Virus record (IMG/VR): IMGVR_UViG_3300033075_001021
DNA length: 64,000 nt
Direction: 5' to 3' (one strand)
Origin: a virus
Lineage: Duplodnaviria; Caudoviricetes
Shown here: piece by piece, positions 1,315-62,795 of the stretch
Numbering within the stretch: the stretch's first letter is position 1
Layout of the letters: each line of letters starts with the position of its first letter
Translations under genes and position numbers: made by a program
The notes under the pieces: model-generated
Databases searched by the model: none
What the model saw: only the letters and a program-made list of their open reading frames with translations
What the model was told of the DNA's origin: nothing

Positions 1315-2511
1315 TTACAAACTAATTTTAATACCCAAGGCTAAAAATTCATTAACATTTAATTCTACTTGTCTATCCATTTTAGCAATGGCGATTAAAT
1401 CCCCCTCCGCATCGTATAAACCAATCTCAGTTATTCTTGGCGTGTCAACAGCTGTAAATGTTGGATTTGTGGATTTTCCAAATTCACCCCTGTTTATAAT
1501 ACATGTGATATTTTGTGTCACTAACGTAGACACACTATTAAATACCGCTGTTGTTGCAGTTGAAGTAAGGTTAAACCAAGACACAAATGTTGGATGTGTG
1601 AGTACAACCAAACCTTTATCTAAATATGCTATACCAACTGGTTCATCAGCATATTGATTCATATTTGTGTCAGTCGTTAAATTATATGGTTGTTTATTAT
1701 TTAAGCTGAATGGTTTTGTAGTATTCCAACCACTAGCCCAACTAAGACTACCGTCACCATTTGGTCTTTTAATGTCATCACAGAATAACAACGCAACGTT
1801 ATCACCCAAGAAGTTTGTTGTTGGCGCTTTGTCGGATATATATCCGTCAAGTACCTTTAATTGTTGACCAGAATTTTGGAATGTTGAATAAATATTGTAT
1901 GTATCAAGATAAGTCTGGATAGTAAGTTTTATCGTTTTACCATCTAAAACTTCACCATATCTTGAATTGTCTATACCGATAACAACAATATCGTTTGTTG
2001 CTAATCCACTTAATGCTGTGTCTAAATAACCACCTTGGCTAAATGTAGTACCAGTGAATTTAAATTTATCATTAGCTGTTATCGGAAGATTAAAACTATA
2101 AAATAAGTTTGTTAATGGGTCAGTATTTGTATTTGCTTGGCTAATTAATTTTTGGGATATATTTGTTGTGGTAGCTGTTGCTATACCAATTTGACTAGTT
2201 GATATAACAATTTCAGATGATTGCGGTTCAACCGACTTTCTTGTTGCACCAGTACCATTAACTAATAATAAGCTTTTAATTGATACATTTTCACCAACAC
2301 TATTTGTTGTGGTGTTTGATGGGCCAATAGTACCACCATTTGCTGGAACTTGACCGCTTGTTAATGGTAATGGACAATAGTAATTCGCATCTGAGTCACC
2401 AAGACTAAATGATGTCACCAAATTATTATTGGTTTGTATTAACTTCTTTCTACCAAGTGGTGTTAACTTAGCTGTAAGTGTTGTAGTATTTGCTGTGTTT
2501 ATATATCCCAT
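1315..2511 (-). CDS. Baseplate/tail-fibre attachment protein (tail-collar or P2 gpH N-terminus-like)
   Basis: N-terminal AKLTPLGRKKL...FSLGDS and C-terminal ITEIGLYDAEGDLIAIAK motifs; paralogue of the next gene. Confidence 0.55.
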   Translation of the reverse strand: MGYINTANTTTLTAKLTPLGRKKLIQTNNNLVTSFSLGDSDANYYCPLPLTSGQVPANGGTIGPSNTTTNSVGENVSIKSLLLVNGTGATRKSVEPQSSEIVISTSQIGIATATTTNISQKLISQANTNTDPLTNLFYSFNLPITANDKFKFTGTTFSQGGYLDTALSGLATNDIVVIGIDNSRYGEVLDGKTIKLTIQTYLDTYNIYSTFQNSGQQLKVLDGYISDKAPTTNFLGDNVALLFCDDIKRPNGDGSLSWASGWNTTKPFSLNNKQPYNLTTDTNMNQYADEPVGIAYLDKGLVVLTHPTFVSWFNLTSTATTAVFNSVSTLVTQNITCIINRGEFGKSTNPTFTAVDTPRITEIGLYDAEGDLIAIAKMDRQVELNVNEFLALGIKISL

Positions 2512-2522
2512 TTTAGTTTAAA

Positions 2523-4682
2523 TTAAAAGTCCATTGACAACTCTAACATTATTGTATTACCAGTTGTTAAAACCACTGGCTGACTTAGTTTACCAATTAC
2601 CACCATATCCCCATTTGTATCGTAAATGGCAACTTCAGTTACCCTTATATCTGGTGGGTTGGTTGATGGTTGTAAGCTTCTTGTTGGGTTAGTTGTTCTG
2701 TTAAAATCAGATGAATTTACCCTTACATCAAATATTGTTTTGAATATTGTTGCACCAATATAGGTTTCCAAATTACCATAGAAAAATCTTTCATCACCAA
2801 ACTGAAGAATATCTGAATTAGTATTTGGTGCCATTGATAATGGAAGTGTTATATCGTATGTTGTTGCAGCAGAATTAATCACCGTACTTAAAATAAAGCC
2901 CACTTGACCATCACAAAGGCTTGATGAATATGGGTTTTGATTTTCCAGTGCTAGTGGGTCAATGGTTTCACCAACGTTGGTTGTTAAACCAGTTGATGTA
3001 AAATCATATGCTTTCCAAGAACCTGGGTCTGGCCTATCATTAATATTATCAACAATTTGATAAAGAACCTTAAAATTAGTTGCGTAGAATCCCAAACCAT
3101 CATACAAAATACTCTCTTTCTTTCTCATGTATGGTAATTGGTCAATATCACTTATCTTAAATCCAACATCTTTCGTGGATGATGTTGTGTTTGTTATTTT
3201 GATATATGACTGACATGGCAATGTTTCTGTTAAACCAGTACCGCTTGTATTATCTAAAGCGTAAGTTATGTACATTGTTTTGTTTATATCCAATAAACCA
3301 GCAGATGTGCCACCAGTTGCGCTTATTAATTGAGCCGATAATTGTGGTAATGTCCAGTTTCTGTTTGATTTGTATGACATTGCAGCAACAATTTCATCGT
3401 CATGGATAACAACCATTTTAAGTTGTGGTAATACCTTACCAACTACTTTAGGTGTTGTAACATACGCCACATCTTCATATAAATCGTAATATTCAATATT
3501 GCTATTACCAATAACTTTAGATGTTCCACTAGCTGTAAACTTCATACCCATTTGTGTACCTTGTCCAGTAGCATAATTGCGTCTATGATACATGATATCT
3601 GGAATAGTAATACTTAATGTCTTACCATTTATTGTATCAATATAAAAGAATTCTCCATATAAATTTGATATTGTATTGTTGGTATAATGCAATAACGATA
3701 GAGATTTACTTACTGTATCGTCATAACTAAATCCAATCCCATTACATTCAGCCGCAGGCTCTGCAATATCAGTAGCACATAAGTACTCTAAATAAGGATT
3801 TTTAGTCCCCAAATAATCATATGAACCAAATTTGGTATAATTCTCATAAAGATTTGTTGTGGAAAGGCCAGTTACACCAGCTAAGTTTTCACACCAAACA
3901 TTATTCATATTCCAAACTTTAACATCATCACAAGTTATGTTTGTTGCAGAATCAAAGGAAAGTGTTCCCGAATCCCAATAAGCAGTTGATGTGTCATATC
4001 CAAATGAATCGGCTACTTCACCACCTCGATAAACGTAAACAAACGAAGTACTACCAGTTTGGTCTGAAAGGTTTGGTAGTTCCCTGTCAACAGTAATGGC
4101 GGTTCCACCAGTTGTTGTTGCTGTCGCTTGTATTTTATACCAAAGATTTGGTACAGCCCAAGTATTTTCTAATATTGTCGCACCAGTAGTTGTATAGTCG
4201 TTGATAGCTTTAAGTCTTATAAAATTACCAACATTTGCTGTAATTGCAGATGAGATATAGATAATCGTACCACCAGTTATTTTTGTGTCAAGAACAGAAC
4301 CTAAACCATTCATATAGGTGTCGCCTGTCATGGTAATGTTGGTTCCGCTAAAAAATCCTCTTTCTGTTGCCAAGTTATTAACAACAGCCTTAACAACACT
4401 AATGTTAGCTGGTGTAAGGGTGTTTAAATTGTTGGCGCTTTGGGTTGTAATAAAGGATTTGATATTTGGTTGTCTATCAAATGGTCTAAAAACCTTACTT
4501 GAGCCAGATAAAACTGGGTCAGATTGGTTGGCATCGACCACGGCCTCTCTGTCATAGTTTATTTCAGAGTCACCAATTGCCCAATAACCAAAATTTAATT
4601 GGCCTTTGGCAAGATTTTCACGACCTTTTTCAGTTAGTTTGATACTAACAAACGGACTGGTACTTTTAATAATATAGCTCAT
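2523..4682 (-). CDS. Baseplate/tail-fibre attachment protein, paralogue of 1315..2511
   Basis: IKLTEKGRENL...WAIGDS and VTEVAIYDTNGDMVVIGKL motifs; S/T/G-rich. Confidence 0.55.
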   Translation of the reverse strand: MSYIIKSTSPFVSIKLTEKGRENLAKGQLNFGYWAIGDSEINYDREAVVDANQSDPVLSGSSKVFRPFDRQPNIKSFITTQSANNLNTLTPANISVVKAVVNNLATERGFFSGTNITMTGDTYMNGLGSVLDTKITGGTIIYISSAITANVGNFIRLKAINDYTTTGATILENTWAVPNLWYKIQATATTTGGTAITVDRELPNLSDQTGSTSFVYVYRGGEVADSFGYDTSTAYWDSGTLSFDSATNITCDDVKVWNMNNVWCENLAGVTGLSTTNLYENYTKFGSYDYLGTKNPYLEYLCATDIAEPAAECNGIGFSYDDTVSKSLSLLHYTNNTISNLYGEFFYIDTINGKTLSITIPDIMYHRRNYATGQGTQMGMKFTASGTSKVIGNSNIEYYDLYEDVAYVTTPKVVGKVLPQLKMVVIHDDEIVAAMSYKSNRNWTLPQLSAQLISATGGTSAGLLDINKTMYITYALDNTSGTGLTETLPCQSYIKITNTTSSTKDVGFKISDIDQLPYMRKKESILYDGLGFYATNFKVLYQIVDNINDRPDPGSWKAYDFTSTGLTTNVGETIDPLALENQNPYSSSLCDGQVGFILSTVINSAATTYDITLPLSMAPNTNSDILQFGDERFFYGNLETYIGATIFKTIFDVRVNSSDFNRTTNPTRSLQPSTNPPDIRVTEVAIYDTNGDMVVIGKLSQPVVLTTGNTIMLELSMDF

Positions 4683-4686
4683 AACC

Positions 4687-4728: not shown

Positions 4729-4742
4729 CCAATTGTAAACAA

Positions 4743-7409
4743 TTAATATGAATTTATGGCATTTGATTGAATCACTACAGGAACCGTTTCGCTATACGCA
4801 ATACTTTGAATTGGGTCCCCACAAATAGACTCGTAATTTTTAGTGTTTTTTACCCTATAATACAATTTTGTTCCCACATCTCCAGTTATCGTCAAAATAC
4901 CACCATAACTTGTTACATTTATTTCATATGGTACAACACTTGATACTGTAAAACTTGAGAAGTTAACATCAGAACTTAACTGAAGGCTAAATTCACCATT
5001 TTTTAAGGCTGGCCCATTCTCAATATACCATCCAATGTAATTGTTTGATTGAGTAATTCCATTAATTACGATGGTTTTTGGGTAAAAAATAATATTTATG
5101 ATGTCACCAACCATTAATGAACCAGTCAAAATAATTCTATTTGGGTTAGATGTTGATTGATAGTAGTCGATACCATCAGCCAATGTTACACCATTTAAAA
5201 TAACCATGATTTTGGTCAATCTTAATGGTTCATTGGTGGTATAAACCTCGTATTTTCCCGTCGTTGTGTTATAAAAATATTTACTACTTCCTTGTGTATC
5301 GGTGGCACCACTTGGTATAGCGGTATCAATCAATATCGTGTTAGATATTAACTTTGTTGATGTTGTTCTTGTATAATATATTGTTATTATGTCCTCATTA
5401 GCCACCGTTCCAATGAATGTAAGAACCCGTCCACTCAATGTATAGTCAATATCTTTTGCAAGTGTTAGACCATTAAGTGTAACTAATACATCACCCACAT
5501 ATTCATTTGTCAAAACAAATGTACTACCTGTTCTTTCATATAATTCTGGAGTTTCTGATTCAGCTGGTATATTACCTTCTTGTGAAAAATCTACAAGAAT
5601 CACTTGTTGATATATACTAACAGGGGAATATGTTGCTTCATCACTACCACTACCAGTAAATTCTGGTTTTTCGGCTTCTCTAATTGCAACAAAATAGTAG
5701 TCCAACTCTGGAACATAAGTGCCATAAATTTCACCTGTTTTATATACACTAGTATCAAACTTCTTACCCAATCTCCTCATGAAATCTGTACACGCTTCGG
5801 TTTCAAAATAGCCCTTCACAATGTAATCACCATCAAGACCTAAACTATCTGTTGGAATTGCAACATTAATTTCATTTGTTGCACTAAAACTTGAATATGG
5901 GAACAGTTCACTTTTATATACCGCTGGAAGTTTAAATACACGGCTTTTTGGGAGGTATCTATAAACTTCATACTTAAATGATGTGTTTTCATCAAATGTA
6001 TTGGTGTTACCAGTAAAATTAAATGTAAACGGAATTGATGACTGGCTTTGGCTTAAAGTATAAACTCCTGTGCTAGTATTATCAATGTATGGGAATGTAT
6101 TATCACATACAACAACACAGTTATCTAAACAATCACTACATCCACTTGTAATACCTGTTGTTATTATTTCTAAGCATCTATATGGTACTGAACACGTATC
6201 TAATGCATATCCTGATGGACATAAGTATCCAAATGTTTCACCCAATTGCCAATCTAATCCAACAAATTCTTTTGTTGAAAAAATCAAACCAGTTTGACCA
6301 GTTGTTGTAGCGGCTGTTAATGCAGCATAGCTTGATGGGAAATAAACTTCCGCACCAAATGCTGATGCTGAACCAGTATTTATTCCTTCCATCTCAATGA
6401 TGTTAAAACCAGAATTAAATTGTACTGGAAATACGCTCCACTTTCTAAAATTGTCTGGTGAACTACCAGTAAAATTAATTATTAGGTCACCATTTATTTT
6501 AACCCTAGCATTGTTATCAGCTGCAACACCAACATAATATGTTCCAGCTGAGATAATATCAATACACTTAGAAAATCCAAGCCATTGAGCCGTATCAGCG
6601 CTAAGTCCGACATTGTTTAGTCGCCCAGCGGTTGTTGTTCCGCTAGGGTTACCCCAAAATGTGTTTCCAGTTGAAACAATGTTTAATGGTGATATTACAG
6701 TACCTAATTGGTCAACTAAATCTTGAAAATCGCCTACATAATATACTGGTAAATTTGAATTACTTTGTATATTTGGGTAAAAATACGTTCCATATGCAGA
6801 ATATGCTGTATTGGTATTTCCTGAAATTATTGGTAAACCAGTGCCAGAAAATGTTGCACCAGTAACATTTATTTCTTGACAAGCATCGTTTGCTGGTGTT
6901 GCACTAAATCCAATAGGGCAACCATATGGTTTTGAATAAATTGAAACACAAATGTCAAGCTCTAGTTCTTTTACACCATAAGGTTTAAATATTGTAAATG
7001 TTGACCCGCTTCTTGAGTATGTGTAACCTAAATCACGTAAGTTTAATGTTATTGAATTCAATAAGTCTGCTTGTGTTGGGTTATCATTTAAAGTTGTTGT
7101 TGTGTAAAAATTATTGGTTGATACCAATTCGGTGTCAGCATAGAATTTTGTTTCCCATGTTGTTGCACTATAACAATTTGTAAATGCTGTGGTGTAACAA
7201 GTTGCGGTTACAGCTGAGAAAATAGCATCTAATGAGATATCGCTAGGGTCACATTCAACGCTATCACATTGTACCTTTGTAGCACCACTTAAATCAAATG
7301 TTGGTGACTTAAAAATACAAATATCTGAACTCATGTTTACATTCAGGATATCTTTATTTCTAACCCCACGATTATCATTTTGTATGTATATTCTTTCTTG
7401 GTATCTCAT
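4743..7409 (-). CDS. Virion fibre/baseplate protein with a Cys-bracketed PA14-like module
   Basis: 888 aa. Contains GTYYVGVAADNNARVKING (PA14-like) and two VxLNGxTLAxxIDY repeats; lies among baseplate genes. Confidence 0.55.
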   Translation of the reverse strand: MRYQERIYIQNDNRGVRNKDILNVNMSSDICIFKSPTFDLSGATKVQCDSVECDPSDISLDAIFSAVTATCYTTAFTNCYSATTWETKFYADTELVSTNNFYTTTTLNDNPTQADLLNSITLNLRDLGYTYSRSGSTFTIFKPYGVKELELDICVSIYSKPYGCPIGFSATPANDACQEINVTGATFSGTGLPIISGNTNTAYSAYGTYFYPNIQSNSNLPVYYVGDFQDLVDQLGTVISPLNIVSTGNTFWGNPSGTTTAGRLNNVGLSADTAQWLGFSKCIDIISAGTYYVGVAADNNARVKINGDLIINFTGSSPDNFRKWSVFPVQFNSGFNIIEMEGINTGSASAFGAEVYFPSSYAALTAATTTGQTGLIFSTKEFVGLDWQLGETFGYLCPSGYALDTCSVPYRCLEIITTGITSGCSDCLDNCVVVCDNTFPYIDNTSTGVYTLSQSQSSIPFTFNFTGNTNTFDENTSFKYEVYRYLPKSRVFKLPAVYKSELFPYSSFSATNEINVAIPTDSLGLDGDYIVKGYFETEACTDFMRRLGKKFDTSVYKTGEIYGTYVPELDYYFVAIREAEKPEFTGSGSDEATYSPVSIYQQVILVDFSQEGNIPAESETPELYERTGSTFVLTNEYVGDVLVTLNGLTLAKDIDYTLSGRVLTFIGTVANEDIITIYYTRTTSTKLISNTILIDTAIPSGATDTQGSSKYFYNTTTGKYEVYTTNEPLRLTKIMVILNGVTLADGIDYYQSTSNPNRIILTGSLMVGDIINIIFYPKTIVINGITQSNNYIGWYIENGPALKNGEFSLQLSSDVNFSSFTVSSVVPYEINVTSYGGILTITGDVGTKLYYRVKNTKNYESICGDPIQSIAYSETVPVVIQSNAINSY

Positions 7410-7675: not shown

Positions 7676-10600
7676 TTAAAACGATTTAATTGAAATACTC
7701 GCTGTCGCTGTACAACAACCATCAGTTACAGTAACGGTATAAAGACCATTTACTGTAGCCGTAACTGATGATGAACTTGATTCTTCAGTTGGTGTTACCC
7801 ATACATACGTTACATTTCCAGTATAATTTGACGCCACGGCCAATAATGTTCCATCAATAGGTATATTATCTTGTATTTCAACAGTCAACTCACATGCTGA
7901 AATATCATCATCAGAACATGGTGAACTGTTTTTACCAATAACTTTTACCGTACCAATAAACTCAGAACCACTATTCATTTGTGTCAAATATGTCATGCTA
8001 TATGTTTGTTGGTTAAACTGTGGAAGAGTATTTGTATCGCCGCTAATTACACTTGTTACAATCTCAACATCACATGTTGCTCCAGTTGCTGGGCTTAACA
8101 CTTGTAAAAATACTGGTGTACCAAAGAAACTTGTGTAAGCTTTATACTTATGTTTTTGCTCATCAAACATTGTGTTTGTATAGATTCTTGTGGACCCCCA
8201 AATTGTAGTTGCTGGAATCACTTGTTCAATCAAGTCAACCCAATAATTACCAATCAAGTTTCCAAATTTTTCCATACTGTAATAATCAAAAGCCGCACTC
8301 TTTGTATTACAAAACGCCAAACTGTTCATATACCTATCATATAATAATCTAAGTGTTGCATATGTTGAAATTGTCTTTCTATTTTTAGCATCAATTAATT
8401 GTGATGTTGTATAATATTGAAAGTCTTCTATTGTTGTCACAGCACTTAGCGGTTGTGTAAATAATCTTTCTATATCAATATTAGCATCACCACAATATTC
8501 ACTACAACAGTAAGTTTTAGGTGAGCATGTATTTGGTGCGGTGATACCTGTAACCGTTCCGCTTATTGTTATTGCACTAAGAATTGGGCACGTAGTTGCT
8601 GATGTAATCGTAAATGCACTAACCGTATCTGGTATCTCAATTACATTAACATTAATTGGTTGTTTTTGAATTCTGACACAACTTGGTGTTCCACAATTAC
8701 TAAATACAAAACCAGCTGGGCATGAGTATCCAATTCCGTCACCTGTGTCAAATCTAGTTCCAACTCTTTGTGTTGTTGAAAACAATACATTTGCTTCAGT
8801 TAAACCCGTTGATGTCGCCCCTGTTAATGTTGCAAAATCTATTGGGTAATAAACTTCTGCCGCAAAAGCAGAATCAACGCCAGCATCAAGACCCTGCATT
8901 TCGATAATGTTTACCCCAGAATTAAATTGTACTGGGAATACACTCCATTTTCTAAAATTTTCTACTAAATTTTGATTAAAATTGGCTACTAAAACACCAT
9001 TTACAAAAAATCTTGCTTGGTTGTCAGCTGCAATACCTAGATAATATGTACCACCAGAAACTATATCAATACATTGCGTAAATCCAGCCCACGTATCTCT
9101 TATTGCAAGAATACCAATATTATTTAACCTACCATTTGATGATGACCCCAGAGACGCCCAAAATGAATTTGAGTTATTTACTGCTATTGGTACCACAACA
9201 TTGCCTTGCCCATCGATTAATTGTCCATCACTTCTATATGTATATGGTAACACTGGGTTACCAGAACTTATATTTGTTACTTCAGGGTAGAAGTAAGCAC
9301 CTAACACAGAGTAATTTGCCCCGTTTTTATCACCATTGCTAATAATAGGACCAAGATTTGTTGGTGATGTCGCAGCTTGTGTAATTATTGACTGGCATTG
9401 GTCGTTAGCTGGTGTTGCACTAAATCCAATTGGACATGTATATGCTGTTACCGCTGGATATGAAGTGGTTATTGATGAAAAAACATCTACCGTACAAGCG
9501 GTATAAACAACTACTTGCTGTGTTTCTGATGTAATTGTTATCGAAACACCTGACGTTGTTTGGTATGCATCCTTAACACATGTTGTTGTACCAATTGTGG
9601 TACCTGTCAAAATACATGGATTATCTGAAATGTAGCACCAAATATCTGTTTCAACAGCAGATGCAATATCTATATCCAAATCAATTTCCTTTGTATTTAA
9701 AACCTGTCTTTCAGATTCAAGATAATAATCTGTATATCTAATTGGTTGTGTCCCGTCAGCTTTAGTTATTGAAAATTCCCTGTGGGTTGTTTCCGTAACC
9801 GTTACCCAAGATTTTTTATTGTCAATAATTCTATCAAGCTCAAATCCTGGTGATTTTGTAACAAATATATCATCCTTTAACTTTTTAGAGCATTTCTTAT
9901 TAAGTTTTATATTATCAACAAGAACACACATATCAATACAAAACCCACTAATTTTAATAGACAATTTAATCTTTTCGTCTGTAATACCAGATAAAATTGA
10001 TTCATCGGTTATTTCTGTTGTATATGTTAACCAATCTGATGCAAAGGCATTGAGTGGGATTGTTGGATGGGTCAATAAAATTTGTTCGGCAAATGTCGCA
10101 CAATTAGACCTAGGTACAAAAACATCATCACCCAAATCTAGTTCATTACAACCCTGAATTGAATCATTTACTTGGCAAATATAAAAACCTGTATTTCCGC
10201 TATTATCTTGTAGATATGATAGTAAGTTTCCGTTACCTATCGGTGGGAAGAATTCATCGCTAAAGACTGGTGTTGTTGTTACGCCATATGGTGTTACAAC
10301 AATTTTATCAATTGACATGCTAGCACCCAAACGTTCAAATACTGAATCTAATGTTGTACATGTTGAATCATATGTACCATTTATAAAACTAGATAATACA
10401 TCACAATCAAATTTGAATAAATAATCAAACTTAACTTCTAATGAACAAGATTCATCCACAACTTCTGAAAAAATTGCACCATCATTACCTTTTGGGTTTA
10501 ACACCAAATTAAATGGTAATGAGTAATCACACCCATCAATTACTTTACCATAAAAACATTTTTGTGAATTAACATCAAACGTACCGCCAATGTTTTCACA

Positions 10601-10723
10601 GCATGGTTTTGTTAAATGGTATGGAATTTCCACCCCAGTTAGTATTGAATACGCACTGATTGTACCATCTGGGTTATGGTAAATATGTAATTGGTCAGTA
10701 TTTAAACAAGTTGTGCCAGTCAT
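7676..10723 (-). CDS. Cys-rich virion/baseplate protein with a PA14-like module and a C-terminal Ig-like repeat
   Basis: 1015 aa. Shares a ~250-aa module with 4743..7409; contains WVDLIEQVIPATTIW and ends in TYVW...GLYTVTVTDGCC. Confidence 0.55.
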   Translation of the reverse strand: MTGTTCLNTDQLHIYHNPDGTISAYSILTGVEIPYHLTKPCCENIGGTFDVNSQKCFYGKVIDGCDYSLPFNLVLNPKGNDGAIFSEVVDESCSLEVKFDYLFKFDCDVLSSFINGTYDSTCTTLDSVFERLGASMSIDKIVVTPYGVTTTPVFSDEFFPPIGNGNLLSYLQDNSGNTGFYICQVNDSIQGCNELDLGDDVFVPRSNCATFAEQILLTHPTIPLNAFASDWLTYTTEITDESILSGITDEKIKLSIKISGFCIDMCVLVDNIKLNKKCSKKLKDDIFVTKSPGFELDRIIDNKKSWVTVTETTHREFSITKADGTQPIRYTDYYLESERQVLNTKEIDLDIDIASAVETDIWCYISDNPCILTGTTIGTTTCVKDAYQTTSGVSITITSETQQVVVYTACTVDVFSSITTSYPAVTAYTCPIGFSATPANDQCQSIITQAATSPTNLGPIISNGDKNGANYSVLGAYFYPEVTNISSGNPVLPYTYRSDGQLIDGQGNVVVPIAVNNSNSFWASLGSSSNGRLNNIGILAIRDTWAGFTQCIDIVSGGTYYLGIAADNQARFFVNGVLVANFNQNLVENFRKWSVFPVQFNSGVNIIEMQGLDAGVDSAFAAEVYYPIDFATLTGATSTGLTEANVLFSTTQRVGTRFDTGDGIGYSCPAGFVFSNCGTPSCVRIQKQPINVNVIEIPDTVSAFTITSATTCPILSAITISGTVTGITAPNTCSPKTYCCSEYCGDANIDIERLFTQPLSAVTTIEDFQYYTTSQLIDAKNRKTISTYATLRLLYDRYMNSLAFCNTKSAAFDYYSMEKFGNLIGNYWVDLIEQVIPATTIWGSTRIYTNTMFDEQKHKYKAYTSFFGTPVFLQVLSPATGATCDVEIVTSVISGDTNTLPQFNQQTYSMTYLTQMNSGSEFIGTVKVIGKNSSPCSDDDISACELTVEIQDNIPIDGTLLAVASNYTGNVTYVWVTPTEESSSSSVTATVNGLYTVTVTDGCCTATASISIKSF

Positions 10724-24446: not shown

Positions 24447-24448
24447 AA

Positions 24449-34978: not shown

Positions 34979-35010
34979 CAAATATACTAATTTATCTTCA
35001 AAAATGCAAT
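34979..35010 (-). promoter_or_regulatory. Bacteroidota-type promoter
   Basis: TATATTTG at 34986-34979, with ATTG 20 nt upstream. Confidence 0.55.
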
Positions 35011-48099: not shown

Positions 48100-48133
48100 T
48101 TCTTTTCTTTATTTTTATAAATATACGAAAATG

Positions 48134-48157
48134 AAAAAAGCCCATTTTCAGGGCTTT
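48134..48157 (-). terminator. Intrinsic terminator after the chaperone extension ORF
   Basis: AAAGCCC/GGGCTTT stem plus a U-run; followed by an ATATTTATA box (48124-48116) for the TMP gene. Confidence 0.7.
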
Positions 48158-49602: not shown

Positions 49603-49603
49603 A

Positions 49604-50134
49604 TTATTTCTTTTTGAATTTTACTTCATTATATGATATTTGAACATAAATCGTAGACACATCTTTACTCTCGTAATCTAATGGGCTCCAATCAACATTT
49701 GTAATAACACAACCCTTTAATACCCATTTTTCAATAACTTCACCTAATGGGTCCAACACTTCAATTTTTAACTTAAAGGGTTTTTGTGTTTCAATCAATT
49801 TCATTAAGTTTTCTGTTGTAGATGGTTCAACACCATCACGTAATATTACGGTTATTTTACCACCAACATTAAATGGATAAGTTGGTCTAGTTAATCCTTT
49901 TACGTACCATTCTGAAATATTAAATTCTTTAGGGAATATTAAATACCAACGATTTGCCATTTTTGGCTCATACATAAACGGAGTTTTAGAATTCTTAACA
50001 ATATTCTCTTTTCCGTAAACATCTTTGATTTTTTTAGGGAGTTTTTTACCCATTGATTTAGCTTGCCTCGCAGTTCTTTTATACATTTCTTTGGCTTCAT
50101 CCATTGTTGTTGTTGTATAACCTGTTACCATCAT
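49604..50134 (-). CDS. Tail tube paralogue with an N-terminal extension
   Basis: YEPKMANRWYLIFP...LDPLGEVIEKWVLKG aligns by eye with the adjacent tube protein. Confidence 0.7.
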   Translation of the reverse strand: MMVTGYTTTTMDEAKEMYKRTARQAKSMGKKLPKKIKDVYGKENIVKNSKTPFMYEPKMANRWYLIFPKEFNISEWYVKGLTRPTYPFNVGGKITVILRDGVEPSTTENLMKLIETQKPFKLKIEVLDPLGEVIEKWVLKGCVITNVDWSPLDYESKDVSTIYVQISYNEVKFKKK

Positions 50135-50184
50135 ATTAAAACATTTGTATCAATAAATATATGAAATTAATTTTTTTTGTAAAT

Positions 50185-50214
50185 AAAAAGCCCTGCAAAT
50201 AATTGCAAGGCTTT
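50185..50214 (-). terminator. Intrinsic terminator after the tail tube gene
   Basis: 12-bp stem (one G-U pair on the minus strand) plus a U-run. Confidence 0.8.
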
Positions 50215-50235
50215 AAGGTATAAGTAAAGAAAAAT

Positions 50236-50724
50236 TTAGAATAATAAGATTGCTCTATCAAATCTAAGAGTAGCGGTAATCTGAGCGATACCATCGTCAT
50301 CCATGGCTAAGTCACCAAAACCGACGTTGGTTAACATGGTACCATCAAGTAACCATTTTTCAACAACAACACCAGTCGGGTCAAGCATTTCAAGCTCAAC
50401 AGGTCTTTTATAACCCACAGCATAACCTTGACGACCAGTGATAGATTCTGAGTGAAGACGTACCCATTCCATAATAGCTTGTGTAGCTGAAGGACCAATA
50501 GGGTCACGGAATGTTACATCAATACTTTCCCACGTAAATCGACCAATTACCCAAGTAGATGTATTTAAGAACTGAATTTCAGTTTCATTTTGTGTAATTG
50601 AAGGTCTTGATGCACTTTCTAACCACCATTGCTGAATACCCAAATCAGCTGGGAACGTAATAAGCCAACGATTTTTCCTTTTAGGTTCGTAAGGCAACGG
50701 CATTTTCATTAGTAAATCTGACAT
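50236..50724 (-). CDS. Major tail tube protein (T4 gp19-like)
   Basis: YEPKRKNRW, GRFTWESIDVTFRDPI, IMEW and LDPTGVVVEKWLL. Confidence 0.85.
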   Translation of the reverse strand: MSDLLMKMPLPYEPKRKNRWLITFPADLGIQQWWLESASRPSITQNETEIQFLNTSTWVIGRFTWESIDVTFRDPIGPSATQAIMEWVRLHSESITGRQGYAVGYKRPVELEMLDPTGVVVEKWLLDGTMLTNVGFGDLAMDDDGIAQITATLRFDRAILLF

Positions 50725-53743: not shown

Positions 53744-56581
53744 TTAGATATTGTCAAATGAAGCACCAGTGTTCATGATATTAAATTCAATTTCAATGAA
53801 TTCAAGACTTCTGGTTGGCTTAAGGAATATCTTACCAGTTAATTGGTTTCTATCGATATCCTCAGGGTCATTGCTCAATACCACTCTAAAGTCTGTAAGA
53901 CCTCTTTCCGTTCTGATGTTATCCAAGATTGGATTAACAAGAGCTAAGAATTGGTTTCTTACAATTGTATCGTTTTGTTCGAACAACAATCTGATAGCAA
54001 CAGCAGAGATAAGCTTTCTAGCTTGAAGAAGTAATCTTCTAACATTGATTCTGTTAAGTGCAGAGTCTTTAACTTGAAGAGTCTTATTACCCCAAATCTT
54101 AATACCGTCAGATGTGAAGGTTGCGATTGGGTTAATTCTGTTCTCATAAAGAACGTCTCTCTCAGCCAATGTAAGCTTTTTACGTGCTTTTATAGCGTCA
54201 ACATCACCTCTTTGGATACCAGCAACAGCAAACCATGGGAATGCAATGTTATCGGTTAATGCAATGTTTCTTACCACATCTCTTGTAGGTGGAACATAAA
54301 TATAAACGTTGTTCTCAGCATCAAGGATTTGAATCCATGGCCAGTAAGTTGCGGTGTAGTTTGAATCATACATATCGTATAAGTTATCAGTAACATCACC
54401 AACATTTAACACACCACCAGAAGAGTCTGTATCAGGAGTTGTAACGATATACAATGAGTCAGCCCTATCCTCTTCAATCATTTCAATAGTTTGTTCAACT
54501 AAATTCGTGTTATCAAAGGTATCAATACCTGGTGTTGCAAACACGTTGATGTTAACAGCCTCAGGGTTTTTAAACGTCCAAATAGCTTCAAGGTATGCGT
54601 AGTAATCAGATGTAATACCCATGTCACCATTAGAAAGTGTTTTAGAGGTAAACACACCGCTAGATAAACCAGCTTGTCCTTTGGTACCATTGATAATAAA
54701 ACTATCTAAATTACTTCTTCTAGTTCTATATGCGTCCCATCCATCAAAACCACCGTAAAATGCACTTGTAAACTTACGAGCATATACTTTTTCATATGGA
54801 CCGTTAGCTAAACCACTTTCAGTTGTAAATGTCCAGTTACCTGTTTCAAATTCAAAAATAGGGTTGTAAGTTGCACCAGAGTTACCATTGATATAATATG
54901 TTACACCGTCAATAGTTGCCGTTGCAGCATTAATATCCATGTGGAAACCTTTTGTTAATCCAGTCCAATGGTCATAAGTTTGTCCAATTGGAACACCCTT
55001 ATAGTCAAAGAAGTCAGCATCAATACCTATGGTATTTGAAAGACCTAGATAATACTTACGTTTATTTTCAAATGTACCATATGTTTGTTTGTACATTATA
55101 TTTGGTGTCTGTACAGTTGTATTACTGTTGATTTGGTAATCCCTAACAGGGAAACCAACGAAACCAGCAGGGAAAGCGTCGCTTGTGTCAACAGTATCAT
55201 CCAATTCAACTAAAATGTAAGCTGATTTAGATGCGTATGTTCCATCAAGAGTACCAATTCTTCTAGCGATAAAGTTGTTAGAAGTTGGGTCCATTGTACA
55301 ACGAGTGAATGCTTCAAGTATGCTTGGTTGTGAATCAGTATCGTAGAATCCTCTAATATATACGTCAAATTCTTTAGTATCTGGCTTAATATTAGCAATA
55401 GAAACTTTAAACTGTTCGTTTGCAGCATTACCATCAGAAATAGTCCAGAATCTGAACAATCTTAACACCTTATTACCTCTTAATTCAGATACGAAGTAAG
55501 GGGTAACAGCTGGTTGATACTCTTGAAGGTAATCTTCAAAGCTATCTTGATATACAACTGGAGTTAGGTTAATACCTCTTATCTTTTCAGTTTGGTAATC
55601 ACTGTTAAACATGTTGTCGAATAATTCCTCAACATATATCGCAGTTTTACCGTCTTGAGGTGTTCTACCTAAAACTCTTGGTAAATAATTCTTTTGTGTT
55701 TTATCAAATGAACAAGAATAATTGAAATCACCCAAGGTAGTTGAATTACCACTTAATGAGAATGTACCTAACGGATTTGTTTCAGCCGCCGTAACACTTG
55801 GGTCAAAGATAACACTACCAGTAACTTGGAATGTCGGTACTTGAGTTGTAGCGTCAATAGAACCTCTTGAGCGTAAAAGCGCCACCAATTTATTTTCGAT
55901 ATCTGAATATCCAGTACCAACATCCTGAATTGTATAACCAGATGTTATACCAGTATAGGTACTACCAGTACTAGAAAGAATTGTTGATAATGTAAGACCG
56001 ACAGTTGCGGCTGTAAATGCATCACCTACCTTGACATATTCGCTTGAAACAACTGAGGTTTCACCACTAGTCATTGTCGCTAAGAAGTCAAATGTAATAG
56101 CACTTGTTGTGTATAGATAATTAAATAATGCGTCAGTAGAACTAACAGCAACCAATGTACCACCAGTTGTAGCGGTAAATGTTACAAGTGGGTCAACATA
56201 TGTTGTAGTTGCACTAATTGTGGTTGGGTCTAATGCTGCGTCTAAACTGATACCCCAGCTTGGACCTGCGTAATATCCAGAGAAACCTAAAATTCTTGTA
56301 ACGAACAATTGGTTTGACTGTGAGAGATATGATTTAGCAATGTATGGTAATTCATATAATGGCGCACCATTACCATCAGAGCCATTTACTAAGGTGTTGT
56401 CTAATCCACCAAAAAATGACTGGAACTCACCATAGTTGCTAATAAAAATTGGTTGGAATGCTGGCCCTTTGGTTGTCTCACCCACCAAACCCAACGTAGT
56501 AACACCTACTTGACGTGTTACGAAGGTTAAGTCTTTTTCTGAAGTGTAAACACCTGGACTAACGAATACTTTGTCTGCCAT
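53744..56581 (-). CDS. Tail sheath protein (T4 gp18-like)
   Basis: VSPGVYTSEKD, LVGETTKGPAF, YWPW, PWFAVAG, LYENRINPI, IWGNKTL, RINVRRLL and PTRSLEFI. Confidence 0.95.
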   Translation of the reverse strand: MADKVFVSPGVYTSEKDLTFVTRQVGVTTLGLVGETTKGPAFQPIFISNYGEFQSFFGGLDNTLVNGSDGNGAPLYELPYIAKSYLSQSNQLFVTRILGFSGYYAGPSWGISLDAALDPTTISATTTYVDPLVTFTATTGGTLVAVSSTDALFNYLYTTSAITFDFLATMTSGETSVVSSEYVKVGDAFTAATVGLTLSTILSSTGSTYTGITSGYTIQDVGTGYSDIENKLVALLRSRGSIDATTQVPTFQVTGSVIFDPSVTAAETNPLGTFSLSGNSTTLGDFNYSCSFDKTQKNYLPRVLGRTPQDGKTAIYVEELFDNMFNSDYQTEKIRGINLTPVVYQDSFEDYLQEYQPAVTPYFVSELRGNKVLRLFRFWTISDGNAANEQFKVSIANIKPDTKEFDVYIRGFYDTDSQPSILEAFTRCTMDPTSNNFIARRIGTLDGTYASKSAYILVELDDTVDTSDAFPAGFVGFPVRDYQINSNTTVQTPNIMYKQTYGTFENKRKYYLGLSNTIGIDADFFDYKGVPIGQTYDHWTGLTKGFHMDINAATATIDGVTYYINGNSGATYNPIFEFETGNWTFTTESGLANGPYEKVYARKFTSAFYGGFDGWDAYRTRRSNLDSFIINGTKGQAGLSSGVFTSKTLSNGDMGITSDYYAYLEAIWTFKNPEAVNINVFATPGIDTFDNTNLVEQTIEMIEEDRADSLYIVTTPDTDSSGGVLNVGDVTDNLYDMYDSNYTATYWPWIQILDAENNVYIYVPPTRDVVRNIALTDNIAFPWFAVAGIQRGDVDAIKARKKLTLAERDVLYENRINPIATFTSDGIKIWGNKTLQVKDSALNRINVRRLLLQARKLISAVAIRLLFEQNDTIVRNQFLALVNPILDNIRTERGLTDFRVVLSNDPEDIDRNQLTGKIFLKPTRSLEFIEIEFNIMNTGASFDNI

Positions 56582-57057: not shown

Positions 57058-57059
57058 AA

Positions 57060-57938: not shown

Positions 57939-60900
57939 TTATGCTATGTTTATTATCATTTGACCTTCAATACGTCTAGCCGTTGCATTTGTCCATGCTG
58001 AAAAGTTAGTATCATTCGCACCATTCGCCACTTCAACAACGTTAGTACCAGCTACTATACGCCATAACATTGTGGCTTGTGTTGTACTATTTACACCATG
58101 AATTATACCACGTTGTTCACCAGCCCAAGAACTAGCATTAAACGGTAGCGTAAATGATGTTGTTGTACCAGAACTATTTGGTGACGCACATCTGAAATCA
58201 AATTGTACAAACATGGTTTTACCCATAACCATATATTGGATTTGTTTAGTTGTTAAACTAGTTAAACCTGTTATACCAACAATAGCACTGTAATCAGTCC
58301 AACCCGTAAAATCAGACCTTGTAATTGTAGTAGTACCACCAGTATTGTTATTAAGGACAACCTGTGAAGTTGAATACGTACCACCAGTTGTTACCACATC
58401 TGTTATACCCGTAACAGTAAAGGTACCACCAGTATTATTTGTTAATGATAACGTTCTTGTGCTTTGATTAAATGTACCACCAGTTGTTACCACATCTGTT
58501 ATACCCGTAACAGTAAAGGTACCACCAGTATTATTCGTTAAAGTAAGTATACCAGATGATTTAGTATACGTACCACCAGTTGTAAATATATCCGTTGGTA
58601 AATTTTGATATGTAGTAGCACTTATTGTTGTACCGTTAATAAATTTATTTCCATTAACCCATAAACCAGTATTATCAATTTTCATTACTTCAGTTCTATT
58701 TGTAGAACCAGATGTTGTTGAATTAAATGATAAATAAGTACCCTGATTAGTCGATGACCAGTTTTCAGAAGCTATTAATGATATATTGGCTTTACTTGTT
58801 GAGGTAAATCCTGTTCCAAAGTAACCTCTACCACCAAATACACCGATTGTGTCTCCACTTTGTATAGCTGAAGGTGTTGTTGATGTACCTCTTGATTTAT
58901 AAGAAATAAATCCAGCGGAATTAGTATCGTTAGCATAACGATATAATGATATTTCATGTCCACTTGTGATACCTGTTATTGTGTATGAATTTGCTGTTAT
59001 GCTTGTTGCACTAAGACTAATAAATTTACCAAACCCATTACCGTCAATACTTGAAGTCGTTACATTCGAACCATTTTGACCTTCAAATATATTATCAGTA
59101 TCGGCAGTTGACCCCCTTTGAATTGTTAATGCCCCTCTAGCACTATCTGTTATAATTTCTGGTGTGTTAGAATTATCATAAGTCTGTTGTAATGTCAACG
59201 TACTAACCCCAATAGAACCAGCTAACGATTCACCAAATTTAGAAACAGGTAAAAATATTGCGTTTGTACTATTTGAAAGGTCCGTACAACCCTTTGTTAC
59301 TGATAATATACCAATGAGAATAGCCGCAGCAGATACATTTGAATATTGTGTGAATGTTTCAGTTGTGTGTGCCGCAATAGCATTGGACAATGATGTGTAA
59401 ATAGTTTGACCATATTGTACAATAACATTACCATTTGGAAATAAATAAATACGTTGATTTGTCGCTGCATTACTTGAGCCAGGAATTGTAGTAATCACAC
59501 CACCAACATCATATTTTGTTGGGTCGATATCAGTAATAGTTGTACCAGTACCACCTGTTTGTGTTCTATATTTAAAGGATACTGGCGTTGCAGATGGTGT
59601 ATTTACCTTATTAGGGTTACTGAAATCATTTCTAGCATTGACACCTAAACCAAATAAATAACCATTAGCCTTGTTAAATTTAAGATTAGCTCCATTTGGT
59701 GATAACCCATTACCAGTATTAATAAGATGAAGTTCGGAAATAACATCAAGAACCTTGGCGTTCGCACCCTCATACGTAGTAGTAAACGAATTAACATTAC
59801 CAATACTTGTTAAATTGGTGTGCCCAAGTTGTCCAAGTAAAATAATTTGTCTTCGTTGACTATTTGTTGGTTCAGTTGAATATTGTACTAACGTACCAGT
59901 TTTATCAATACCAATATAAGATAATGTTGACGATGAAAGATATGTTAGAGTAACCCCTGTTTGTGCAGAAATACTTACAGGATAAAGCGTTGGTTGTCCT
60001 GGGGTTGTCCACCAATCAACAATATATCCAACACCACTTGTTATATTAAATGTTGCAGTATTAGCACTATTAATTGTTATAACAGCACCAGAAATAAGAC
60101 CGCTAGCAAAATCTCTAGTCAAAACCGATATTAAACTATTACCACTAATTGTATTTGCAATTGTGTTACCTGTAGCTGCTGAAAGAGCTATAAATGTTCC
60201 ACTTGAATTTATTCCAGCTAAAGCCGATGAGGTACCAGAAAGTGCATTTACGGTAACATTTGTTGTTGCTGTAATACCTGTAAACGTCTCAATTCTGGTC
60301 GATACTGTTCCACCAGTACTATTTGTTAAGGTTAATGAATTATTTGTAAACGTACCACCAGTAATCAAGACATTTGAACCGCTTGTTGTACCAGTTGTAA
60401 AACCAGTTACTGTAACTGTACCGCCAGTACTATTTGTTAAAGTCAATGTACCGTTTGAATATGTACCACCAGTAATTAAAATACTTGTACCACTTGTTGA
60501 GCCGCTTGTTGTACCAGTTGTAAAACCAGCTATACTAACAGTACCACCAGTACTATTAACCAACGATAATGTACCATTCGAATATGTACCGCCAGTAATA
60601 AATTGACCAGTTACGGCTGAAACAGCCATCGTATGCACAATACCACTAACATCAACATTTAATAGCGTGTTATTAACCTCATTAATAAGACCCTGTACCC
60701 TTAATGGGTCGGTTGCAGCTGATATATGCAACTTATTAGTTGGTGAACCTGTAATACCAATACCTGTGTTATCCCCAGCACTATTAAGTAAGTTATTACC
60801 TGTAGTATTTTCAAATGCAATGTTGGTTCCTTTTAATGTTTGACTAAATGTTGGGTTATAGTAAAATCCACGTATAGTTGATGTGTTTGCTGATGCTTGG

Positions 60901-62795
60901 TCAAAGTTTGGATTGATGTTAAATATATTAACAACACCACTACCTGATGAATGTAAGCTTCTAAAGCTGACACCAAAACCTGATTTAGTACCTGATGTAT
61001 TTGATACATCACCCAAATACAACATTGCTTCTGTTGTACCTGTTGTGTTGTTTCCACCAGCTGTACCAAATGCAACCCTTGTTGTACCAGCACCACCCAA
61101 AAACAACATATTGTTGGCATATAATCTATATTCAGATAATCCCTGTGGATTATAAGAGAATACAGATTGACCACCAAAGAACCTTGTACTATGTGTAGTA
61201 TTCTGTCCTAGTTGAACACTACCACCCACATCTAATTTATATGATGGATTTAACCCAATACCAACGTTAGTACCATCATCAATAATTTGACTATCTGTTA
61301 ATCCAGTTGAACCAGACCACTTAGGTACATAATTGGTTGTACCACTACCAGCAATTATACCATTCTGAAAACCACTGATAGTAACCGTACCACCTGTGTT
61401 ATTCACAATTGATAATGTACCAGCACTATATGTACCACCAGTAATAAAGCTATCTGTTATACCAGTTACCGTAACCGTACCACCAGTATTATTAACTAAA
61501 GACAATACCCTAGTGTTCTGGTTAAATGTACCACCAGTTATTGTTGTATCAGTAAATGTTTGACCAGTTAAGAAACCACCAACACTAAATGTACCACCTG
61601 TGTTATTTACAAATGTAGCTGTTCCGTTACTGTATGTACCACCCGTAACAAAGGTATCTGTAACACCTGTTAAGAATCCACTTATGTTGATACTATTACC
61701 ACTTGAATTAATCAATGATAATATACCAGTAGTTTGGTTATACGTACCACCCGTAATAATACTTGGATTGAACGTATATGTTGTACCAAGATTATCCTCA
61801 AGTGTAATCTGATACAGAGTTGTAAACACATCTTGAATATATGTATTAGGTACACCTGCGTTAAAACCACTTACATTAAATGTACCACCTGTTGTATTTG
61901 TAAAAGTTGCAATACCATTGGTTGGATTATATGTACCACCAGTAACAAATACATCTGTTATACCAGTTATGGTAATAGTACCACCAGTATTATTTGTTAA
62001 TGATAATATTCCAGATGATTTGGTATACGTACCACCAGTGATTGATTCAGGTGTAAATATTTCTGTACCACCAGTACTATTAAATAATAATAAAGAATTA
62101 CCGTTTTGACTTGACCCTGTTAATCGATATGTGTTAATACCTGTTAATTGACTACCATCACCATAAAATGTTGTTGCGGAAATAGTAGTTGCACTAATTG
62201 AATCTGCAATTAAATTCCCAATTGTTAAACCTGTAAAATAATTGATGTACGTATTAAGATTAACACCATCATTTCTAGTAATAATTATTTGATTATTTGA
62301 AAATGTAAGACCTGTTGTATATATATCCTCTGTTGAAAATGATGATAAATCTAGTGTATATGCGGATAAAGCATCGGTTCGATTAAAGTATACTGTTTTC
62401 CCAACAAGAGTAGTTCCTGTTGTATAATAATCCGTAAAACCTGTTACAATAATAGTACTACCATTACTGTTATATAAAGTTAACGTATCGACGTTATTAT
62501 CGAATGTGCCACCAGTTAAATATATATCTCTTGATGAGAATATATCTAATAGATTTGTACCACCACTATAATATGTTGAGGCATAAATCGTGTCAGCCGT
62601 AATTGCGTTGTTTGTATATAAATTACCATCAAAGGTTATAACACCAGTACCCATAAAAATCTTGGTGTCACCTGAACAACCAATAATACTATTTGTGTAA
62701 ACAGCTGTACATGCGCTAATTACTTCTCGATTAACGACTGTTGGTTCAATGATAAAAGTCTCATTAATATTTGTTTGATTATCTAAACAGCTCAT
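57939..62795 (-). CDS. Long tail fibre with TGGT repeats and a C-terminal receptor-binding-like domain
   Basis: 1618 aa. Many TGGT(Y/F)...L.L.N.TGGT.T(V/I).G repeats, the fibre motif NYVPKWSG...DSQIIDDGTNVGIG, and C-terminal WTDY...YMVMGKTMFV...FTLPF. Confidence 0.75.
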   Translation of the reverse strand: MSCLDNQTNINETFIIEPTVVNREVISACTAVYTNSIIGCSGDTKIFMGTGVITFDGNLYTNNAITADTIYASTYYSGGTNLLDIFSSRDIYLTGGTFDNNVDTLTLYNSNGSTIIVTGFTDYYTTGTTLVGKTVYFNRTDALSAYTLDLSSFSTEDIYTTGLTFSNNQIIITRNDGVNLNTYINYFTGLTIGNLIADSISATTISATTFYGDGSQLTGINTYRLTGSSQNGNSLLLFNSTGGTEIFTPESITGGTYTKSSGILSLTNNTGGTITITGITDVFVTGGTYNPTNGIATFTNTTGGTFNVSGFNAGVPNTYIQDVFTTLYQITLEDNLGTTYTFNPSIITGGTYNQTTGILSLINSSGNSINISGFLTGVTDTFVTGGTYSNGTATFVNNTGGTFSVGGFLTGQTFTDTTITGGTFNQNTRVLSLVNNTGGTVTVTGITDSFITGGTYSAGTLSIVNNTGGTVTISGFQNGIIAGSGTTNYVPKWSGSTGLTDSQIIDDGTNVGIGLNPSYKLDVGGSVQLGQNTTHSTRFFGGQSVFSYNPQGLSEYRLYANNMLFLGGAGTTRVAFGTAGGNNTTGTTEAMLYLGDVSNTSGTKSGFGVSFRSLHSSGSGVVNIFNINPNFDQASANTSTIRGFYYNPTFSQTLKGTNIAFENTTGNNLLNSAGDNTGIGITGSPTNKLHISAATDPLRVQGLINEVNNTLLNVDVSGIVHTMAVSAVTGQFITGGTYSNGTLSLVNSTGGTVSIAGFTTGTTSGSTSGTSILITGGTYSNGTLTLTNSTGGTVTVTGFTTGTTSGSNVLITGGTFTNNSLTLTNSTGGTVSTRIETFTGITATTNVTVNALSGTSSALAGINSSGTFIALSAATGNTIANTISGNSLISVLTRDFASGLISGAVITINSANTATFNITSGVGYIVDWWTTPGQPTLYPVSISAQTGVTLTYLSSSTLSYIGIDKTGTLVQYSTEPTNSQRRQIILLGQLGHTNLTSIGNVNSFTTTYEGANAKVLDVISELHLINTGNGLSPNGANLKFNKANGYLFGLGVNARNDFSNPNKVNTPSATPVSFKYRTQTGGTGTTITDIDPTKYDVGGVITTIPGSSNAATNQRIYLFPNGNVIVQYGQTIYTSLSNAIAAHTTETFTQYSNVSAAAILIGILSVTKGCTDLSNSTNAIFLPVSKFGESLAGSIGVSTLTLQQTYDNSNTPEIITDSARGALTIQRGSTADTDNIFEGQNGSNVTTSSIDGNGFGKFISLSATSITANSYTITGITSGHEISLYRYANDTNSAGFISYKSRGTSTTPSAIQSGDTIGVFGGRGYFGTGFTSTSKANISLIASENWSSTNQGTYLSFNSTTSGSTNRTEVMKIDNTGLWVNGNKFINGTTISATTYQNLPTDIFTTGGTYTKSSGILTLTNNTGGTFTVTGITDVVTTGGTFNQSTRTLSLTNNTGGTFTVTGITDVVTTGGTYSTSQVVLNNNTGGTTTITRSDFTGWTDYSAIVGITGLTSLTTKQIQYMVMGKTMFVQFDFRCASPNSSGTTTSFTLPFNASSWAGEQRGIIHGVNSTTQATMLWRIVAGTNVVEVANGANDTNFSAWTNATARRIEGQMIINIA
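58378..58535. repeat. 62-bp exact direct repeat (96-bp period) within the fibre gene
   Basis: 58378-58439 is identical to 58474-58535. Confidence 0.9.

Follow-up and report, generated by a model that had tools for sequence, protein, structure and literature searches.

A clade-specific [ST][GA]xT motif in the peripheral tail proteins of uncultured jumbo phages, a candidate acceptor tag for virion O-glycosylation

The peripheral tail proteins of an uncultured, lake-type jumbo phage of ~304 kb carry the short linear motif [ST][GA]xT, and in the outward tail, baseplate, and fiber proteins it is enriched ~4- to 5-fold (3.7- to 4.8-fold, depending on the protein set). The DNA analyzed, referred to here as the window, is a stretch of 64,000 nucleotides from the IMG/VR record IMGVR_UViG_3300033075_001021 and is contained in the metagenome contig ENA ERZ4208449 NODE_5 (303,928 bp). 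The motif is real and sharply defined, its excess is a protein-level signal that is mostly not due to paralogy, and the excess is specific to the clade to which the phage belongs. It looks like a tag that is read chemically by something, and from the sequence comparisons below we judge the chances to be about even that [ST][GA]xT is an acceptor tag for cytoplasmic O-glycosylation of the virion. A literature search found no paper describing the motif.

The 41 open reading frames (ORFs) of the window are nearly all on the minus strand, the G+C content is 34%, and matches to PHROG and Pfam families show the tail to be contractile and T4-like, with a block of nucleotide-metabolism genes sitting among the tail genes. 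Sheath orthologs are present on at least 129 viral contigs, some of them 306 to 368 kb long, and the best 80 are 66 to 88% identical. The relatives compared are G001 (306 kb), G004 (complete, 368.5 kb), G002, and G003, with L001 as a further source of orthologs. Sequences beyond the window were reached by walking along the contig, so that the inspected part is all but ~200 kb of the phage's own contig.

Enrichment of the motif

Expected counts were taken from 1,000 composition-preserving shuffles of each ORF. Across all 41 ORFs there are 166 [ST][GA]xT sites, compared to 45.0 expected, and the excess is confined to nine tail proteins, with the remaining 32 ORFs at 13 versus 12.4 (ratio 1.05). 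The eight enriched proteins other than the fiber have a ratio of 4.5 under global shuffling, which falls to 3.8 when residues are shuffled only within 20-residue windows. The original prediction had proposed the motif from a reading of the translations; every example that it quoted is present at the coordinates it gave, and the per-protein excess that it called for is found and survives local shuffling.

The motif is specific in both order and composition. The reversed form T.[GA][ST] has a ratio of 1.0 to 1.2, and other permutations of the same residues are also near 1. A non-circular scan of all 8,000 a-b-x-d patterns, using every tail-module ORF picked by position alone and excluding the fiber, ranks TGxT first (37 versus 8.3; p 2e-13), SAxT second, and SGxT fourth, each significant after Bonferroni correction. 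Where [ST][GA] occurs, position 4 is filled by Thr 38% of the time in the carrier proteins and 61% of the time in the fiber. At position 1, Ser is enriched 6.1-fold and Thr 3.9-fold, with every other residue at 1.3-fold or below; at position 2, Gly is enriched 5.5-fold and Ala 3.9-fold, with the others at 1.1-fold or below; and at position 4, Thr is enriched 4.8-fold and Ser just 1.4-fold. Ile and Leu are enriched immediately before the motif, and Asp (1 versus 13), Glu (0 versus 7), and Lys (0 versus 8) are depleted there. The hydrophobic residue that the original prediction placed ahead of the motif is thus real, as an Ile/Leu preference, but is weaker than the core motif.

Counting six further proteins just beyond the window together with the nine within it, there are 15 carriers with 242 sites in total. 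Paralogy was considered as a source of the excess and accounts for at most 18% of sites: 43 of the 242 fall in paralogous segments detectable by BLAST (24 of these aligning motif to motif), and 82% lie outside them. The pattern D[ST][AILVMT], characteristic of the presumed Bacteroidota host, occurs 44 times in the 15 carriers versus 51 expected (ratio 0.86), and this, together with the strong avoidance of Asp at position −1, agrees with the earlier proposal that the phage motif is not the host sequon. The N-x-S/T sequon is not enriched either (ratio 0.98).

We considered whether composition, codon context, or a DNA signal in Thr/Ser/Gly-rich genes might produce the excess as a side effect. The carriers are indeed rich in Thr (10 to 19%), Ser, and Gly, the Thr at position 1 is encoded by ACT in 57% of cases compared to 24% overall, and one carrier beyond the window has a collagen-like tract that generates sites. 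The ACT bias, however, is a general effect of NNT before G that extends to non-motif [ST][GA] dipeptides and to non-tail genes, and ACTGGT hexamers are found in frame only. Moreover, all four S/T by G/A variants are enriched, the excess persists in 20-residue local shuffles, and permuted motifs of the same composition are not enriched. Local shuffles, in-frame hexamers, the position profile, and the 8,000-pattern scan together refute this explanation for practical purposes, and we regard it as having a negligible chance of being correct. Like a sequon, [ST][GA]xT is a short degenerate motif that is enriched and conserved in its carrier proteins independently of fold.

Carrier and motif-free proteins

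The richest carrier is the 1,618-aa tail fiber (57939..62795, minus strand; phrog_16641 tail fiber, E 4e-34), with 73 sites versus 15.4 expected (z 15.6). The fiber contains regular 32-residue repeats, each with TGGT, TGGT, and TGIT, and its DNA has tandem repeats of 96 to 123 nt; most other carriers are not repetitive. The 945-aa tail sheath (53744..56581, minus strand; phrog_23, E 2e-58) has 11 sites versus 2.8. Sheath sites had been predicted to cluster in variable insertions rather than in the conserved core, and all 11 lie in an insertion spanning residues 101 to 600 (54782..56281, minus strand; 2.2 expected), with none in the core (0.74 expected). The sites originally quoted map to residues 123 to 214 (~55933-56215) and to residues 540 and 568 (~54880-54964), and those at 210, 214, 540, and 568 are conserved in the clade.

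The large proteins encoded at 1315-22199 have no Pfam or PHROG family match, and because of their location after the wedge genes we read them as peripheral baseplate or fiber proteins, an assignment inferred from position. All are on the minus strand. The motif is in excess in a 275-aa baseplate-region protein (15160..15987; 6 versus 0.46) and in peripheral baseplate/fiber proteins of 888 aa (4743..7409; 17 versus 2.8), 719 aa (2523..4682; 13 versus 2.4), 1,015 aa (7676..10723; 16 versus 3.2), and 1,143 aa (10725..14156; 7 versus 2.4, z 3.0). A module-terminal protein of 398 aa (1315..2511; 5 versus 1.7, p 0.03) and a 1,225-aa baseplate protein (18522..22199; 5 versus 2.0) are weakly enriched. 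Orthologs behave similarly: that of 4743-7409 in L001 (77% identical) has 17 sites versus 2.7, that of 2523-4682 in G004 (59% identical) has 11 versus 2.3, and the region of G001 orthologous to 18522-22199 has 9 versus 2.0. The six carriers just outside the window have 89 sites versus 16.8 expected, and include one protein with a Peptidase_S74 fiber chaperone domain and one with a PKD domain.

Some of these proteins have repeats and duplications of their own. The 4743-7409 and 7676-10723 products share a 263-residue segment with 52% identity, a local duplication in proteins that are otherwise unrelated, and this segment explains just three aligned sites. A 747-aa protein beyond the window (L099:14529-16772) has a collagen-like G-x-y tract of ~140 residues (PDB collagen matches down to E 3e-66), in which G-V-S-G-A-T triplets yield some [ST][GA]xT sites trivially. 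We also note that NFxG (42 versus 3.8), GYxA, and SNxI are strongly overrepresented in 12 pooled non-fiber carriers. By eye these look like one dense short repeat resembling a YadA head, and our guess is that it resides in a 1,102-aa protein (L099:10001-13309).

Other parts of the tail serve as internal controls. The inner baseplate wedge proteins (gp6-like and gp25-like; 22632..24832, minus strand; phrog_219, phrog_261) have no sites versus 0.8 expected, and the five ORFs that include the tape measure, the baseplate hub, and two tube proteins (45571..50724, minus strand; phrog_167, phrog_150, phrog_4542) have 2 versus 1.6. As anticipated from the first inspection of the sequence, the motif is rare in the ribonucleotide reductase, helicase, recombinase-region, tube, and tape measure ORFs, each of which, like the gp6-like and gp25-like proteins, has 0 or 1 site. 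The motif is therefore limited to the peripheral tail, with the tube, tape measure, hub, gp6/gp25-like proteins, sheath core, and enzymes essentially free of it, and the proposal of a linear motif common to mostly non-homologous virion proteins holds with restriction to these peripheral parts. In the relative G001, the capsid protein has 4 sites versus 1.3 expected.

Several other window genes merit description. Directly downstream of the sheath gene is a gene for a 959-aa Gly-rich protein (50788-53667, minus strand) that lacks motif sites and matches no Pfam or PHROG family. Two genes between tape measure and replication block (35010-40331 and 40643-44677, minus strand) code for proteins of 1,773 and 1,344 aa with short, weak PHROG matches only and no motif excess; these may be internal or ejected virion proteins. 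There are two endonuclease VII/HNH-like genes, at 24910-25473 (minus strand) and 44763-45350 (plus strand); the latter is the sole plus-strand gene of the window and lies between tail genes in the manner of a homing-endonuclease insertion.

Clade specificity

The excess recurs in relatives, with eight ORFs at p<1e-3 in G001 and six in the complete G004 genome, all of them fiber, baseplate, or sheath proteins except for a 291-aa PhoH-like ORF in G004 (4 versus 0.4). It is not a generic property of tail proteins, an explanation excluded by five other phages. The T4 tail, baseplate, and fiber proteins have 21 sites versus 18.3. When the entire genomes of Flavobacterium phage immuto, Microcystis phage Mel-JY01, LR756508 (484 kb), and cyanophage S-SM1 are scanned, no ORF reaches p<1e-3 and the overall ratios are 1.2 to 1.5.

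Conservation and structural context of the sites

Of the motif sites in the sheath, eight are kept by half or more of 79 orthologs, and six of them by 90 to 100%. Sites 254 and 553 are present in 90 to 95% of orthologs and lost in the window genome, and other sheath columns have 10 to 50% motif occupancy, so there is turnover as well as conservation. The substitutions at conserved sheath sites follow the motif itself: position 1 is Thr in 61% and Ser in 36%, position 2 is Gly in 75% and Ala in 20%, position 3 is unconstrained, and position 4 is Thr in 91% and Ser in 1.4%. Ordinary columns of the same alignment differ, with 5.7% Ser where Thr is the majority and 1.9% Ala where Gly is. The 275-aa protein has 558 homologs, and among the 54 that were aligned, sites 75, 115, and 216 are kept in at least half and site 149 less strictly, with the same S/T and G/A exchange and a fixed Thr. 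The free exchange of Gly and Ala together with an unexchanged Thr at position 4 fits a chemical readout better than a backbone requirement.

AlphaFold2 models are usable in part, namely for the beta core of the 275-aa protein and for sheath residues 110 to 350 (predicted local distance difference test [pLDDT] score 80 to 90; 47 elsewhere). In the two models, several sites have [ST][GA]x predicted in the loop of a hairpin and the Thr as the first residue of the following strand, and sites 149 and 196 of the 275-aa beta core are such loop-to-strand starts; others are predicted in mid-strand, at strand ends, and after helices or at helix caps. A fold search with the sheath model matched only sheaths, and one with the 275-aa model gave no match.

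Part of this evidence suits an explanation without any modification, in which the motif is a clade-specific structural signature, a beta-turn or strand start in beta-rich modules that has been spread by diverged and shuffled modules. The carriers are all Thr-rich beta proteins, the recurrent hairpin-loop context is what such a signature predicts, and many sites are positionally kept in orthologs with 90 to 100% occupancy, as structural residues are. Two further features weigh against a tag: the fiber motif recurs three times in each 32-residue repeat, with inter-site spacing peaks at 7 to 8 and 15 to 17 residues, and the best-conserved sheath sites, 210 and 214, are predicted to lie within a beta-strand. 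Because the motif belongs to a regular repeat there, it may have a structural role in the fiber, the protein in which such a role is likeliest. In contrast, the equally beta- and Thr-rich tails of T4, the cyanophage, immuto, Mel-JY01, and LR756508 are at ratios of 1.15 to 1.5, the predicted contexts are heterogeneous, and 82% of sites lie beyond detectable paralogy. Homologous folds also do without the motif: the LR756508 sheath aligns to residues 277 to 942 with 31% identity and has unrelated residues at the clade-invariant sites 540, 553, and 568, and PDB 8oml, a homolog of a fiber segment, lacks two of three motif sites. Finally, Gly/Ala exchange is ten times that of ordinary Gly columns, and the position-4 Thr is not exchanged with Val, Ile, or Ser. 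On balance, we think it rather unlikely that the motif is a structural signature.

Glycosyltransferase genes on the same contig

The original prediction looked to a phage-specific enzyme encoded outside the window. The window's own contig has ~10 glycosyltransferase genes, in a cluster starting ~24 kb past the right end of the window, whose products are candidates for such an enzyme. The genes are at L101:1720-10924, 16576-17694, and 18473-19282, all but one within ~13 kb, and the whole stretch (L101:1720-19282) is ~24 to 42 kb beyond the window. The cluster codes for a 549-aa GT-A/GT-B fusion, a UDP-GlcNAc 2-epimerase, and GT2, GT32-like, and GT4 transferases; for a methyltransferase of the FkbM type, a dTDP-sugar set of dehydratase, isomerase, and reductase, and a 317-aa protein without a family match; and, after PhoH, for a 372-aa protein resembling GT4 and a GT2 of 269 aa. 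None of the 23 cluster proteins has a convincing membrane-spanning segment at a hydropathy cut-off of 1.6 (the 549-aa fusion and the 319-aa dehydratase just touch it, and both are soluble-enzyme ORFs), and the cluster therefore does not encode a lipid-carrier pathway. Searches of Pfam, NCBIfam, PDB sequences, and the protein atlas assigned neither the core transferases nor the 317-aa protein a specific function.

The genes for the 549-, 317-, 372-, and 269-aa proteins flank the cluster and are kept in G001 and G004 at 40 to 70% identity, and the middle cassette between them is wholly different in the three genomes. The window genome has dTDP-deoxyhexose and ManNAc-type genes; G001 (66.8 to 83.8 kb) has GDP-fucose genes, two GT11 genes, a GT17-like gene, and methyltransferases; and G004 (102 to 111.7 kb) has barely more than one 444-aa GT2. 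We note that conserved flanks with an exchanged cassette in three clade members resemble the diversification of O-antigen loci. The 269-aa GT2 is present on at least 165 viral contigs with 63 to 84% identity and is as conserved as the sheath. Co-occurrence with the motif, suggested as a check on the prediction, is seen in this sample: the four core genes are in the motif-rich G001 and G004, and the five motif-negative phages have no homologs of any of them.

A sugar-transferring cluster could act on other molecules, and DNA looks to be an unlikely target. The sole thymidylate synthase homolog of G001 has the motif GLPFN, whose Asn we take to mark a dUMP-type enzyme by the Asn/Asp discriminator, and no C5 DNA methylase (PF00145) was found in G001 or the complete G004, leaving no recognizable route to glycosylated DNA. 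A search with PF12851 (TET/JBP) also gave no match, but its positive control was silent too.

The same tag-like statistics would apply if the motif were read by a partner that is not a glycosyltransferase, such as a kinase, an acyl- or methyltransferase, a cross-linking enzyme, an assembly chaperone, or a decoration protein docking on the surface of the tail, with the glycosyltransferase cluster serving some other target. Known protein-glycosylating transferase families were not found, and many clade proteins are without an assigned function, the conserved 317-aa cluster gene product among them. Against such a partner, the equivalence of Ser and Thr at position 1 indicates a hydroxyl acceptor, no kinase or other modifying enzyme is seen beside the tail genes, and the transferase set is wholly soluble, is not accompanied by genes for a lipid carrier, a flippase, or a polymerase, and has no route to DNA hydroxymethylation beside it, so that no other acceptor is obvious. 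We consider a partner of this type improbable.

A proposed glycosylation pathway

In the reading that we favor, [ST][GA]xT, usually following Ile or Leu and hardly ever an acidic residue, would be a recognition or acceptor tag that selection has placed where it is exposed on many unrelated tail proteins of the clade. Its likeliest reader would be one of the conserved soluble proteins, namely the 269-aa GT2, the GT4-like protein of 372 aa, the GT-A/GT-B fusion of 549 aa, or the neighboring 317-aa protein, which would O-glycosylate the Ser/Thr, or else the fixed Thr, in the cytoplasm as the tail is being assembled. The swappable cassette of transferases, sugar-nucleotide enzymes, and methyltransferases would then extend the glycan, so that the sugar coat may vary between members of the clade even though its attachment sites are shared. 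The counts, distribution, and conservation of the motif and the gene content are observations; any modification of the motif, its being a sugar, and the choice of reading enzyme are inferred. The complete scheme, with sequon-directed cytoplasmic O-glycosylation of the outside of the tail, conserved priming transferases that read the motif on tail proteins already folded or still folding, and cassette-determined glycan "serotypes" on fixed sites across a widespread clade of freshwater jumbo phages, is tentative, and we place it slightly below an even chance. A shielding or adhesive purpose for the coat, as originally suggested, is pure conjecture.

Beyond the fiber periodicity and the strand-embedded sheath sites, several observations count against glycosylation. 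None of the cluster transferases is from a known protein-glycosylating family; searches of three relatives gave no homolog of GT9/BAHT (autotransporter heptosyltransferase), GT41, or Maf, and the GT9 domain PF01075 is absent from G001, G002, and G003, with control genomes giving matches. Both immuto and Mel-JY01 possess GT2 genes yet have no motif excess, and the cluster could serve another target. Cytoplasmic non-virion proteins do not avoid the motif (13 versus 12.4), and the link between motif and transferases rests on one clade versus five outgroups.

Comparison with known systems

Mycobacteriophages reportedly encode soluble transferases that glycosylate their own structural proteins in the cytoplasm and so give the virion a glycan coat. 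The glycans are reported at the C termini of the capsid and tail-tube subunits, and a short sequon is not known to be described. The systems are alike in that phage-encoded transferases are present, here as ~10 genes on the phage's own contig with the core kept in G001 and G004. They differ in their acceptors, which are C-terminal in capsid and tube subunits of mycobacteriophages, whereas here the tube has 0 or 1 site and the candidate sites are internal, numbering more than 240 in 15 fiber, baseplate, and sheath-insert proteins under a four-residue rule. The transferase set is also far larger here and has a swappable cassette. The chemistry is reported to be demonstrated in mycobacteriophages, whereas the present case is made from sequence.

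The autotransporter heptosyltransferases TibC and Aah, acting on TibA and AIDA-I, are soluble cytoplasmic enzymes that modify many Ser/Thr residues of a repetitive beta-helical adhesin, and the text of the TibC paper gives no acceptor consensus (PMC4358343). The TGGT repeats of the fiber, at regular turns, would form a comparable acceptor array. The differences are that no GT9/BAHT gene was found in three clade relatives and that candidate acceptors here are also in non-repetitive proteins.

The general O-glycosylation system of Bacteroidota uses the sequon D-(S/T)-(A/I/L/V/M/T) and acts outside the cytoplasm from a lipid-linked glycan. It resembles the present case in that Ser/Thr residues of many unrelated proteins are marked by a short sequon, in the presumed host phylum. 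The motif is nonetheless a different one, with the Asp of the host sequon avoided before Ser/Thr, and in contrast to a pathway using a lipid-linked glycan the phage cluster has no membrane proteins.

Chlorovirus PBCV-1 glycosylates its capsid with virus-encoded cytoplasmic enzymes, placing N-linked glycans on the major capsid protein at a noncanonical acceptor motif. The phage clade is similar in having its own transferases, sugar-nucleotide enzymes including 6-deoxyhexose pathways, sugar methyltransferases, and a noncanonical candidate acceptor motif. PBCV-1 is, however, a eukaryotic virus with N-linked glycans on its capsid, whereas the candidate sites here are Ser/Thr on a bacteriophage tail.

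The clade fits the "moraphages" in size, gene content, and predicted hosts, and we regard these as its candidate identity. Moraphages are a lineage of 200- to 307-kb aquatic phages with predicted Bacteroidota hosts and four core glycosyltransferase orthogroups (PMC12619734). Shared features are the size, the T4-like tail core (gp6, gp13, gp25, and sheath), a sigma factor adjoining the transferases, an origin in freshwater-type metagenomes, and the conservation of the transferases. The function of the moraphage transferases is treated as open, with DNA, host serotype, or the virion as possible targets, and an acceptor motif is not mentioned (PMC12619734).

Implications

If the proposal is correct, [ST][GA]xT would be the first defined acceptor sequon for bacteriophage virion glycosylation. 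To our knowledge, mycobacteriophages are the only phage group known to glycosylate their virions, and we know of no acceptor rule there. Were the chemistry to be confirmed, virion glycosylation would become predictable from sequence, and the motif together with the 269-aa transferase could serve as a compact tag for glyco-engineering. Glycosylation of this kind would also explain why large aquatic phages retain many transferase genes, and would provide a handle on how phage tails are masked or tuned, be it to recognize hosts, to withstand proteases or grazers, or to stick to particles. Conserved attachment sites bearing a swappable glycan would parallel the O-antigen diversification of bacteria, on a virus.

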